DNA of 64,000 nucleotides from Octopus vulgaris (taxonomy: Eukaryota): contig OX597821.1 in assembly GCA_951406725.2 (NCBI GenBank), positions 54,560,001 to 54,624,000 on the forward strand. Reading direction: 5' to 3'. Position numbers and translations under genes: made by a program. Positions 1 to 44,557 of the stretch are shown in pieces (within the stretch, counting starts at the first letter, position 1; every line of letters starts with the position of its first letter). The notes under the pieces were generated by a model. The model worked only from the letters and a program-made list of their open reading frames with translations, ran no database searches and was not told where the DNA came from.

Positions 1-600
1 AAAATTACAACTATTAGTGGTTTGTAGTTTAATTACTCTTTCTAGCGAGTCAGATGTCCTGTTATGGCTATCTATTATATGTTTAAATGTACACTGTATT
101 TTTATATGAATAATATATAGTCTATTGACTAGTTTTTCCTTCTCGCTAGACCACTAGTAGAAAAGAATTTTTCTAAATTTTTTTGCTACCCTAAGATTTA
201 TTAATTAATGATAAAAGGATTTTAGCTAATTTTGAAGGAAAATCGGCACTTATATCTGCTGCCAAAAAAACCGCGCATGCATGGTGGATTTTGAAAAGTT
301 ATAACATATAAACACGAGGCATGTTCTTTATCGTCTTGTATTTATATGTTAGCCTTGGCTTCCTGCTGAAGAGAGCTTCGCCTTATCATAAATTATTTTT
401 TTATTTACAAAAGATTGCTTGAAACTATGCATAGTCCAGGAAAAATAGGGTAAATGTTTTTTTTATTTTTCATTCCCTTTCAAAATTACAACTATTAGTG
501 GCTTGTAGTTTAACTACTCTTTCTAGCGAGTCAGATGTCCTGTTATGGCCATCTCTTATGTGATTGAATGTACACTGTATTTTTATATGAATAATATATA
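1..600 (+). repeat. Tandem repeat, period ~481 bp, carrying a hammerhead ribozyme (retrozyme/Penelope pLTR-like)
   Basis: 1-119 recurs at 482-600 with 7 mismatches; the second copy ends in a TA-rich tract; internal hairpin TAACATATAAA/TTTATATGTTA at 302-351. Confidence 0.85.
360..442 (+). ncRNA. Type I hammerhead ribozyme with short palindromic stem III
   Basis: Stem I TTCCTG(360-365)/CAGGAA(437-442); core CTGAAGA(366-372); stem II GAGC/GCTT; GAAA(421-424); stem III CTATGCATAG; GUC cleavage triplet ending at 436. Confidence 0.85.
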
Positions 601-611
601 TACATATACAT

Positions 612-854
612 TTGATGCTTAAAAATTAGTTTTATAGAAACTTCTTTCAAAATTCCTCTTTAGTTTTTCGCACATTAATTTCTGTAGGTTGAACTATGTA
701 AATTGTCAAAGAAAGGAGCTATTTCTTGCAATACATACCAATACATACGTTTAAATACTATTGCGAATCCCCAATTTACTGTTTTATTGTGTGAACCCCA
801 CAAAAACTTATGTTGACCCTCGGGGGGCATACGGCCCCCAGTTGAGAACCACTG
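612..854. mobile_element. hAT-type MITE, right end
   Basis: Ends ...CCCCCAGTTGAGAACCACTG, the reverse complement of a CAGTGGTTCTCAAC terminus; related to 22116-22332; left boundary uncertain. Confidence 0.6.
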
Positions 855-1338
855 CTCTGCTCTTTTTTGCTGATTCCTCTCATTTAACTATGGCCATGCT
901 AGAGCACTGCTTGAAATGATTTTAGTTAGTTATATCAATCCCAGTTTATTTAATTTTAGTATATATCTTTTCAATCTTTAACTGTGAAGTTATAGGCTAC
1001 AAAGGGAAACAACATAAACACAGATATGTTATTAGACTGAGGAAAATAGAAACACACACACACACACAGATGCAAGCACACAGGAACACACATACTGACA
1101 TATATATTGAGTTCATCAGTGTTTCCTTACAAAAAGACCATTTATCCTGGTTGTTCAGCATCCTCTGAACTAGTTTAATAGTGCTGAATAATCGTATTAA
1201 ACAAACTGTTTTTAAGAAAACACTGTTTGTCACTGTTATTGAGATTTTTTTCTGAATTGTAGATTCCTTGGTTGAGTGATGTAGTTTTGCAAATATTAAA
1301 GACGTGAAAGTTAAAATGAGAAAAACTTAAACAACAAG

Positions 1339-1675
1339 CATATGAGTGGCTGTGTGGTAAGTAGCTTGCTTACGAACCGCATGGATCTGGGTTCAGTCCC
1401 ACTGCGTGGCACCTTGGGCAAGTGTCTTCAACTGTATGTATGTGTGTGTGTATACATTTGTGTGTCTGTGTTTGTCCCCTCAACATCACTTGACAACCGA
1501 TGCTGGTGTGTTTACATCCCCGTAACTTAGCGGTTTGGCAAAAAAGACCGATAGAATAAGTACTAGGCTTACCAAGAATAAGTCTTGGGGTTGATTTGCT
1601 CAACTAAAGGCAGTGCTCCAGCATGGCCACACTCAAATGACTGAATCAAGTAAAAGAGTAAAAGAGTAAAGAGTA
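1339..1675 (+). mobile_element. tRNA-like-head SINE, family A (internal microsatellite, GTAAAAGA tail)
   Basis: Head GAGTGGCTGTGTGGTAAG...GGTTCAGTCCC; body close to 46627-47042; tail (GTAAAAGA)n. Confidence 0.85.
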
Positions 1676-1699
1676 ACAAATCAATCAAATTGAATATTT

Positions 1700-1925
1700 T
1701 TTCTTTTATCTCTGACTTGTTCCAGTCATTAGAGAGTGGCCATACTGGAGTACCACCTTGAAGCATTTTAGCTGTGAGAATCAACCTTTTGCTTATTCTA
1801 TTGGTCTCTTATGCCAAACCACTAAGTTATGGGGACATAAACACACCAGCACTGGTTGTCAAGATGTGGTGGGGGTAACAAACACAGATGCAAAGACACA
1901 CATATACATGTGTGGCTGTGTGTGT
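1700..1925 (-). mobile_element. SINE family A, diverged 3' part
   Basis: Reverse-complement similarity to 1450-1660. Confidence 0.7.
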
Positions 1926-2196
1926 GAGAAAATGCATACACTTCTCATTTCATCTTGTTAAACTAGTAATCCCTACATATTTTTTCTCTCTCTCCATTTT
2001 CTCATCCTCTCTCCATTTTTTCATTTGCATCCCTTTCTGTGGAAGAGAGCAGGCTCAAAACATCAAAGACTTTTCCCTTCTGCCTAAGCATCCACCTGCT
2101 TGTTGTTCCCTCACCTGTCTTCATCTTTTGTTTTTTGTAAATTTGAGCTATATATATAGCAGAATAAGAAATAGAATGTCCTTGTGTGACAGTATT

Positions 2197-2338
2197 ATAT
2201 ATTTGCAAAAAAATGAATTGAAATGGCTTTTCTGATAATTTTTTCACTTTGATAATCAAATGTTTATTAAGATATCTGATAAATTTTTAATTATCAAAAT
2301 GAAAAAATTATCAGAAAAGACATTTCAATTCAATTTTT

Positions 2339-2347
<9 letters not shown>
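2197..2347. repeat. ~150-bp near-perfect palindrome
   Basis: Arms ATATATTTG..GAATTGAAATGGCTTTTCTGATAATTTTTTCA.. and its reverse complement, centred on AGATATCT (2270-2277). Confidence 0.85.
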
Positions 2348-2374
<27 letters not shown>

Positions 2375-2520
2375 TTAAAATTATAATTAAGGGTATCTAA
2401 AAGATACCACCATGCAAGAGATAGCAGTCAAAACCTGACTATAAAACCACATCAAGTATTCATACAGTACCAGGAGAAAAAGACAAAGAGACAAATAAAC
2501 TAGCAAAAAATTATTGGATA

Positions 2521-2578
2521 ATCCCAAATCTAGATTTCTGGCTTTGCATAAGAATATACTCTGCTGCTTCAGTGGGAT
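2521..2578 (-). ncRNA. Degenerate type I hammerhead ribozyme
   Basis: Minus strand ATCCCA-CTGAAGC...GCCA-GAAA-TCTAGA-TT-TGGGAT: perfect stem I and palindromic stem III; last core A changed to C; stem II eroded. Confidence 0.6.
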
Positions 2579-2861
2579 ATACACAGATATTACATAATTA
2601 CAAATATATATATGTATGTAATATATATATATATATATATCAATAATAATATAGGGTGAAATTAATTAATTTGGAATAATCATTAATTTCACCAAGTAGA
2701 TTTCAGCATGTAAAAGCCCCCTTCGAGGAAGGTTTAAGTAATACTAAGTAATTAAGGGTTTAGCAACGATTTGCCTCACCACACACCGAATTTAGAAATA
2801 GCAGTCAAAGAGTTATGGCTATATATATATACACATGTACATACATATATATACGTGTGTG

Positions 2862-2899
<38 letters not shown>

Positions 2900-3055
2900 A
2901 TGGGCTTCTTTCAGTTTCTGTCTACCACATCCATTCACAAGGCTTTGGTCAGTCAAGGGCTATAGCAGAACACAATTGCCCAAAGTGTCATGCAGTGAGA
3001 CTGAACACTGAGCCATGTAGTTGGGAAGAAAACTTCTTACCACACAGCTAAGCCC
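2900..3055 (-). mobile_element. SINE family A, 5' part
   Basis: Reverse-complement match to the head at 46627-46790. Confidence 0.7.
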
Positions 3056-3282: not shown

Positions 3283-3967
3283 TTTCAAAGTCATATTTTA
3301 AGGATAGATATGCTTTGAACTTAATCATTATTTCGATCTATGATAGTATATTGTGCAACGTGATAAACCTATCATACAGGGTGGGTAAAAAAAGACATAC
3401 ACCAAAACATTTGTTGTTTTATGTTATTATTCATTTCATTTATCATGTACAAGTACATTAATATTCATCATTATTTTATATTTTATTCAATTTTAGAAAA
3501 TTTCAAAGTACATCAGACTTATTTTGTGCATGACGTTTTTTTGGCTCCTCTGTATTTTATTGGCCACAGAAGCCTTAAATTGCAGAATGCTTTCATGAGC
3601 AGGTCCATCACATAAAAAGTATATGCATTTACTTACACACACATGCACGCAGATACACGTACATGCACACACACACACATGCACATACATATATATATAT
3701 ATACACACATATCACACACATAACCTTGATCAATATTACTATTCTGCTCTTAGTATTGAGTACTTTGTAGCTGTTGTTTGCTTGTATTGTTATTATTATT
3801 AATATTTTGGGGTGAGCTTTGCCCTTCAATCTTTCAAGGTTGATAAAACCAGTACCAGTTCAGCAATGGGGCCAGTGAAAATGCCTATACTCCTCTCCAG
3901 AAATTTCAAACCTTGTGCCTAATAACAGCAAGGATTATTATTATCATTATCATTAACATTATTATTT

Positions 3968-4435: not shown

Positions 4436-5150
4436 AAATGGACAAAATGTTTAGTGACATTTTGTCCATATTTATATTTTGAGTTCAAATTCTGCCAAAG
4501 TCAGCTTAACCTTTCATCCTTTTAGGGTCGATAAAATAAGTACCAGTTGTGTACTGGGGTCGATGTAATCAACTATCCCCTGCCACCAAATTTCAGGTCT
4601 TGTGCCTATAGTAGAAAGGATATCAGAGTGGTTGGCACTACACTCTTGAAGTGGTTGGCGTTAGGAAGGGCATCCAGCTGTAGAAACTCTGCCAGATCAG
4701 ATTGGAGCCTGGTGCAGTTATCTGGCTCACCAGTCCTCAGTCAAACAATCCAACCCATGCCAGCATGGAAAGCAGACGTTAAACGATTATTATTATTATT
4801 ATAAAGTGGAGAGCTGACAGAATCATTAGTACACTGAGCAAAATGCTTTTGAGTTCAAATTCCCTCAAAGTCAACTTTCTCTTTTATCCTTTTGCAGTCG
4901 ATAAATTAAGTGCCAGTGAAATGCTGGAGTCGATGTGATTGCCTAGTCCCCACCTCCAAATTTATGTGCCTATAATAGAAAGGATTATTATTGTTAGTAG
5001 TAGTAGTTGTAAATTCTGCTGGGGTCGACATTACCTTTTGTCCTTTCAGGGTTGATAAAATAAGCACCAGTCAAGCACTGGGATCAATTTATTCGACTAG
5101 CCACTTCCCCCCAAATTTCAGGCCATGTGCCTATAATAGAAAGGATTATT
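4435..5150 (+). mobile_element. Cluster of SINE family B copies (GAGTTCAAATTC B box, (ATT)n tail) plus one RTE-type tail at ~4637-4800
   Basis: Repeated GAGTTCAAATTC..CCTTTCATCCTTT..GTCGATAAAATAAGTACCAG..AAATTTCAGG..TGTGCCTATA..AGAAAGGATTATT units; other copies near 3825, 12655 and 23033 (-). Confidence 0.75.
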
Positions 5151-44490: not shown

Positions 44491-44557
44491 ATCCACTACG
44501 ATCATTTTCTGGCTGCTGTCATCAAATTTTTAGATCGCAGTCATTCATCAGGTGTTT
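44491..44557 (-). ncRNA. Degenerate type I hammerhead ribozyme
   Basis: Minus strand CAC-CTGATGA-ATGACTGC...GCAGCCA-GAAA-ATGATCG-TA-GTG; stem III is a decayed CGATCG palindrome. Confidence 0.55.

Follow-up and report, generated by a model that had tools for sequence, protein, structure and literature searches.

An ORF-less hammerhead family of Octopus vulgaris whose insertions have the geometry of Penelope-like elements

Metazoan non-LTR retrozymes have been described as units of 150–450 bp, a mussel family among them, and Penelope-like elements (PLEs) were proposed as their mobilizers (PMC7229834). A recent preprint regards them as non-autonomous PLE derivatives on the evidence of co-occurrence and of homology to pLTRs across 35 genomes, none of them from a mollusc, and reports that eight of nine Xenopus retrozyme dimers stayed uncleaved in vitro (Li, Clavereau and Pollet 2026, bioRxiv 10.64898/2026.07.22.740005). 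The case for PLE mobilization of animal retrozymes has so far been one of co-occurrence and homology. Published insertions of EN+ PLEs show an inverted 5′-truncated arm, a tail of 30–40 bp at one end and a bias towards (TA)n (Craig 2021, PMC8557442). Reverse transcription (RT) from two internal start sites, with both strands extended, has been reported, along with in vitro work on PAc in which both strands used the same start site and hammerhead cleavage was dispensable; the integration steps after priming are described there as awaiting validation (Frangieh 2024, PMC11167929). Junction palindromes have been documented and self-priming proposed (Arkhipova 2013, PMC3846280), and hammerheads have a dimeric mode of cleavage (PMC4209133). 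The main text of PMC7229834 does not mention octopus, cephalopod, inverted or microsatellite, and the main literature listings, taken without supplements, Repbase or Dfam, yielded no report of a cephalopod retrozyme.

We analysed a 64 kb window of the Octopus vulgaris genome (64,000 nt of contig OX597821.1; its first base is G000:C8:54560001), the first 600 nt of which had been proposed, in a sequence-only reading, to be a retrozyme in a tandem array. The window most probably opens within a decayed insertion of an ORF-less element of ~470–480 nt, whose RNA was likely copied in trans by an EN+ PLE from two fixed sites.

All elements of a type I hammerhead are present where they had been claimed, at 360–442 on the forward strand; with an extension of stem I (353–357/446–450) the motif covers 353–450. 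Stem I has 6 bp (360–365/437–442) and is followed by CUGAAGA (366–372), stem II (373–376/417–420), GAAA (421–424), a palindromic stem III (425–434) and GUC (434–436), with the cut predicted after C436. The window copy thereby has CUGANGA, GAAA, UH and three helices in type I order. A full descriptor of core and three stems matched once in the 64 kb window and in none of 100 shuffles; the bare core without stems is common there (19 matches at seven CUGANGA sites, 7.4 expected). Rfam Hammerhead_1 (RF00163) aligned to exactly 360–442, across a 44-nt insert in stem-loop II, with 19.8 bits against a gathering score of 34, and an Rfam scan of 1–3000 returned no hammerhead at E ≤ 1. In place of the G10.1–C11.1 pair that closes stem II, the window copy and its subfamily have G-U; other subfamilies have G-C, with or without a bulged base. 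The minimum free energy (MFE) fold of the window copy lacks stem II, and constraining it to the hammerhead costs 1.9 kcal/mol. Loop II is ~40 nt long, and its extension helix keeps five of seven pairs, compared with seven of seven in the commonest form. The window copy is somewhat decayed. Elsewhere in the window, a second hammerhead-like core with a palindromic stem III lies near (TA)n at 44497–44551 on the reverse strand and fails the full descriptor; similar sequence also flanks another locus (L266).

The 481-nt direct repeat was confirmed (1–119 against 482–600, 7 mismatches over 119 nt), and so was its lack of an ORF, the longest open frame across the whole insertion having 84 codons; GC content of the unit is low (30%). 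The array was not: a second hammerhead, predicted 481 bp upstream, is absent, as the tandem extends just 23 bases beyond the window start and then gives way to filler and an inverted arm. What stands there is a forward arm of 1.3 units (1–600 plus the 23 nt before the window; the arm starts at unit position 459, L001 1478–1500), 17 nt of filler and, just upstream, an arm of 250 nt in inverted orientation (G000:C8:54559711–54559960), with a single hammerhead in a total insertion of ~890 bp. The inverted arm, or B arm, comprises unit positions 437–481 and then 1–205; it starts at the first base 3′ of the predicted hammerhead cut and terminates in (TA)n at a site that we call B. The forward arm (A arm, 623 nt) ends in a second, partial unit (482–600) that terminates at a different site, A, and is followed by a short TA-rich flank. 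With one hammerhead, the locus would be unable to release unit RNA by itself, and this copy is likely a dead end. An adjacent ORF encoding RT and GIY-YIG domains had been named as the mark of an ordinary Penelope pLTR; neither the window nor the 20 kb upstream (84 kb in total) holds a PLE ORF, and tblastn for such an ORF was negative in the window and in L001, L031 and L032. Further into the window, 1349–1875, 2961–3048, 3812–3880 and 4477–4963 are dispersed copies of other repeats in both orientations, which we take to be SINE-like.

As anticipated, the unit has many genomic copies. It forms a dispersed family, with 57 BLAST matches (best 40 of 2890 candidates scored). Four exact patterns matched the genome 51 (hammerhead), 308, 263 and 947 times (a 22-mer), and their reversed controls 0 times each; the 947 matches include sister subfamilies that are 70–90% alike. 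After removal of duplicates and four co-duplicated loci, we analysed 219 unique insertions with 337 arms (loci up to L287), which are samples, best matches or first listed places, rather than the whole family. Unit length across the family is ~470–480 nt, and the arms within one locus are ~90% alike. Median arm length is 196 nt; 39 of the 337 arms exceed one unit, the unit end running straight into the same unit without an ORF, and the longest arm, at 1198 nt, amounts to 2.5 units. Two hammerheads on the same strand were flagged in 4 of 95 hammerhead-bearing insertions: L006 and L026 are clear tandems with a hammerhead in each of two consecutive units, and L227 and L277 are candidates. Contigs assembled from three presumed-RNA runs and one other run contain pieces of the unit without clustered ends. 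Excess contig depth at 89–132, considered as a sign of an autonomous partner, was traced to more abundant ORF-less sister subfamilies.

Several relatives and neighbours came to light in the same searches. A distant sister family at L097 (2864–3351, reverse strand), found as a weak HMM match, has the same module order over 1.3 ORF-less units with TA flanks, a hammerhead with a CUCGAG palindrome, and helices resembling H1 and H2 (below). At L326, short alternating inverted arms are nested, and the set is repeated twice 3.7 kb apart. Unrelated small hammerhead elements occur at L085 (5032–5454), L072/L137, L063 (6414) and L097 (6206); each has a palindromic stem III of its own, and some are palindromic two-arm insertions at PLE 3′ ends.

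Arms of the family end at two fixed places. Zone A (78–127) contains the ends of 166 of the 337 arms and zone B (184–225) those of 143, together 309; the remaining 28 terminate elsewhere. In the window, the AU-rich site A zone lies at 87–119, internal to the first unit, and the site B zone at 195–213, where the inverted arm of this locus also terminates; the two are spaced ~86–100 nt apart. (TA)4 was found within 12 nt of the arm end in 115 of 166 A arms, a count inflated by the TA-rich site A itself, in 101 of 143 B arms and in 3 of 28 other arms. The targets are AT-rich or (TA)n, without poly(A), as is typical of PLEs. By BLAST, 112 of the 219 insertions, or about half, consist of head-to-head pairs. 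Profile HMMs typed 108 pairs as 85 A+B, 7 A+A and 0 B+B, with 16 having one end unclassified, so that A+B accounts for 85 of the 92 classifiable pairs; BLAST gave 89 A+B, 5 A+A, 0 B+B and 18 unclassified (n = 112). In the least biased set, picked by a motif at 47–67 that both arm types contain, A+B made up 32 of the 34 pairs that could be classified. The inverted 5′-truncated arm, with an extension on one end only, is likewise PLE-type.

Both sites lie in a structured 3′ module. RNAalifold and pair counts recovered the long-range helix H1 (41–49 with 142–150, spanning 41–150 on the forward strand) that had been noticed in the sequence; it encloses site A of the first unit and shows compensatory changes between subfamilies. 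A further helix, H2 (156–190), was found by RNAalifold just before site B. The alignment held 58 sequences, the window and 57 locus stretches, most of these chosen from 89 B arms and weighted to diverse subfamilies. In it, 93.4% of the cells in the 3′ helices are paired, and two-sided cells number 45 against 17.8 in shuffles; by the pair-count measure the shuffles were not beaten (289/500), and the covariation stems from few independent, subfamily-level events. We predict that H1 and H2 are likely a protein-binding signal. Upstream of the ribozyme, the hairpin at 302–351, also noticed earlier, is conserved, with 88.6% of its cells paired and changes on both sides in 4 of its 18 pairs, and appears in the MFE fold, with a z of only −1.85. 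For the hammerhead itself (29 copies), 89.9% of cells are paired and 10 of 37 pairs have two-sided changes, likewise through few subfamily-level events.

5′ ends were analysed in 234 arms from four motif-picked sets. Of 123 arms at risk, 34 have their end within 15 nt 3′ of the cut, compared with 8/89 and 1/81 in the next two bins upstream and 18/141 in the bin downstream (Fisher P = 1.6 × 10−7 for the peak versus the upstream bins, with arms that are not independent). The peak is seen separately in A arms (22/73) and B arms (12/50), the ends of which differ in their distance from the cut. The other 89 arms (72%) read through, the mode of the peak is at +4, not +0, and the loop-II bin (−45 to −31) is also high (16/80); RT stalling at the foot of stem I, or alignment effects, could therefore produce the peak. 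Reading through the cut requires uncut multimers or circles. Of 109 whole hammerheads, 81 retain an intact core; N7 varies freely (A 52, C 33, U 23, G 1), and 52% of the columns nearby are at least as well conserved as those of the core. Stem III is palindromic in both main forms, CUAUGCAUAG and CCAUGG; the shorter would leave a 2-nt loop in the monomer, which points to cleavage as a dimer.

The two arms of a pair are also related at their junction. Their starts lie no more than 35 nt apart in 38 of 85 A+B pairs (permutation mean 18.7, maximum 31 in 10,000 permutations), and in 31 of these 38 the A arm starts 1–29 nt further upstream. Across all pairs, arm starts show no rank correlation (Spearman 0.04), so the coupling is a subset effect. 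The A arm extends more than 35 nt past the B arm in 32 of the 85 pairs, and B past A in 15. Because of these 32 pairs, fold-back of the B cDNA alone would be insufficient, and because the A-to-B segment cannot come from fold-back of an A-primed cDNA alone, both primings appear to be needed. Fold-back and annealing, or co-travel on one RNA, would each give the junction offset. Subfamily variants are common to both arms of a locus. Arm identity as a test for origin from the same molecule was set aside: in only 10 of 71 inverted overlaps were the two arms closer to each other than to the best outside copy, and the set includes a few self-complementary artefacts.

Candidate enzymes exist in this genome, which is rich in EN+ PLEs. 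Of 148 scored GIY-YIG matches, 16 lie in 781-aa open frames of apparently intact PLEs with RT and GIY-YIG domains; the RT domain scores 28.9 bits with RVT_1, just below the cut-off, and a 479-aa frame lies upstream. These belong to a young two-ORF EN+ PLE family (L084–L101, for example L087 268–4990), whose 479-aa and 781-aa frames overlap and whose copies are mostly 97–99% alike. Tandem CCAAT and TGACGTC boxes occur in its 3′ region together with a TATA-like motif, and its pLTR bears a hammerhead-like motif in which core position 3 is U rather than C and core position 8 is A rather than G. As a sequence parent of the unit this PLE was rejected, DNA-level matches being only short and AT-rich; its copies look younger than the unit family (98–99% identity versus ~90% between arms).

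Neither 20 extended PLE loci nor 20 GIY-YIG loci, a sample of PLE families, showed the unit as the pLTR of an autonomous PLE, and the sampled PLE loci have no more than short AT-rich matches in common with it. A PLE ORF lies near 8 of 204 family loci, and none of the six PLE-adjacent loci inspected has the unit in pLTR position, L108 and L278 being known by BLAST or tblastn coordinates alone. Match pairs 2.5–4.4 kb apart, candidates for a pLTR–ORF–pLTR arrangement, had no intervening ORF (L318, L319, L320). Apparent partner homology at L138, L139 and L148 (1461–1527) was traced to a 67-nt fragment of the unit that sits inside (TA)n in the 3′ part of an old PLE and was co-duplicated with that PLE at the three places. 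Elsewhere, at L134 (2300–4996) and L264/L324 (4122–7771 in L324), site B adjoins a 5′-truncated PLE body, and intervening (TA)n is short or absent, an arrangement that fits either a template switch or later insertion of a PLE into the TA-rich end; directly upstream at L134 lies another tandem element, of ~365 bp, with a degenerate hammerhead on the opposite strand. The arrangements at L134 and L324 are possible multi-template insertions.

The best reading of these data is that the family works like a PLE-mobilized non-autonomous element with the sequence features of a non-LTR retrozyme. The choice originally posed, between a retrozyme and a Penelope pLTR, draws the line too firmly: the lack of an ORF places the unit with retrozymes, yet the geometry of its insertions is that of PLEs. 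The retrozyme proposal thus holds as regards an ORF-less, non-autonomous hammerhead retroelement family with many copies, and fails as regards a tandem array with an upstream hammerhead. In mechanistic terms, rare two-hammerhead loci would be transcribed and the ribozyme would cut some of the RNAs after C436, so that multimers and monomers, and probably also circles, would result. By analogy with PMC11167929, a PLE protein dimer would then bind the 3′ module (H1, H2) and cut both strands of a (TA)n target. One target end would prime at site A (~87–119) and the other at site B (~201–213), a step for which the pattern of ends is observed and the enzyme is presumed. The two cDNAs would terminate prematurely, in many cases just 3′ of the hammerhead cut, and be joined head to head at nearby points, a step for which the arms display the pattern and the cause is presumed: either one cDNA folds back and anneals to the other, in the spirit of the self-priming of PMC3846280, or both travel together on one RNA. 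The window locus would be a product of these steps.

The same insertion geometry is that of PLE stubs, and the copies might instead be 5′-truncated remnants (solo pLTRs) of an autonomous PLE. Most arms are short (median 196 nt), and the genome searches took in the best 40 candidates, or the first 100 places listed per pattern. We nevertheless consider this origin improbable in view of the 39 arms in which one unit end leads into the same unit, ORF-less and up to 2.5 units long, of the thirty best matches to unit region 206–436, none of which has a PLE ORF, and of the distant sister at L097 with the same ORF-less 1.3-unit layout. Still further from the evidence is the satellite-like picture of the sequence-only reading, a classical retrozyme array that grew in situ or was mobilized by LINE machinery. 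Unit size, GC content and the type I hammerhead suit it (compare PMC7229834), but the best matches include no long array (nothing above 1198 nt), same-strand hammerhead pairs were flagged in just the 4 of 95 insertions, and the arms, inverted ones among them, terminate at fixed internal sites and not in poly(A); for this assembly we regard it as largely refuted and give it very little weight.

A more serious contender accepts PLE mobilization and differs from our explanation only in the first step: the hammerhead would have no part in making the template. Uncut linear multimers transcribed from tandem source loci would serve as templates, template jumps would produce the partial tandems, and RT stalling at stem I the 5′-end peak. 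That 72% of arms pass the cut agrees with this, as do stop rates that are also raised at the foot of the upstream hairpin (8/44, 9/53), the PAc hammerhead mutants that insert normally in vitro (PMC11167929) and the uncleaved Xenopus dimers (10.64898/2026.07.22.740005). Against it, stops drop sharply immediately upstream of the cut, within the structured core, where 170 arm-bins contain 9, and a free N7 within a kept core, together with compensatory stem changes between subfamilies, points to selection on catalysis. On balance we think it unlikely, though clearly less so than the stub origin. Involvement of the ribozyme in a PLE-mobilized family remains the preferred reading. We are evenly divided on the stronger proposal that the family is a fossil record of PLE integration, with both RT starts used in each insertion, one per target strand, probably on a single ribozyme-processed or circular RNA, and with the two cDNAs resolved at a coupled junction. 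If true, it would provide junction-level evidence that PLE enzymes move animal retrozymes, and would define a minimal structured cis-signal (~250 nt) by covariation. The family supplies testable coordinates, namely the start sites A and B, the covarying helices H1 and H2, the one-A-one-B rule and the offset at the junction, and its unit provides a short non-coding RNA on which to assay a PLE RT–endonuclease.

Compared with the retrozymes of PMC7229834, the octopus unit is alike in being ORF-less, a few hundred nt long and low in GC, with a tandem junction, and in its type I hammerhead with a short palindromic helix III. It differs in having dispersed copies, most of them shorter than a monomer and arranged head to head, whose 3′ ends lie at fixed internal sites, and at ~480 nt it exceeds the range of 150–450 bp given there; its loop II is ~40 nt. 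With the preprint (10.64898/2026.07.22.740005) the family shares the conclusion on origin, many monomeric dispersed copies and co-occurrence with EN+ PLEs. Here, however, the evidence is the geometry of insertion junctions, a homologous pLTR was not found in the sampled loci, and the window locus falls short of the two hammerheads by which that study calls a locus ‘active’. The class and its link to PLEs are already published, and the gain lies in details of the mechanism and, probably, in a new group of hosts. Unlike EN+ PLEs, the unit has no RT or GIY-YIG ORF, and its tail is ~86–100 nt rather than 30–40. The one-A-one-B rule and the junction offset have been counted for the octopus family; we found no such count in the PLE literature consulted. 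In other respects the insertions resemble those of EN+ PLEs: 5′ truncation, partial tandems, a head-to-head inverted arm with an extension at one end, AT-rich or (TA)n targets, two internal RT starts, near-palindromic junctions and a hammerhead upstream of the 3′ ends. The family is an unusually clean record of PLE-type integration.
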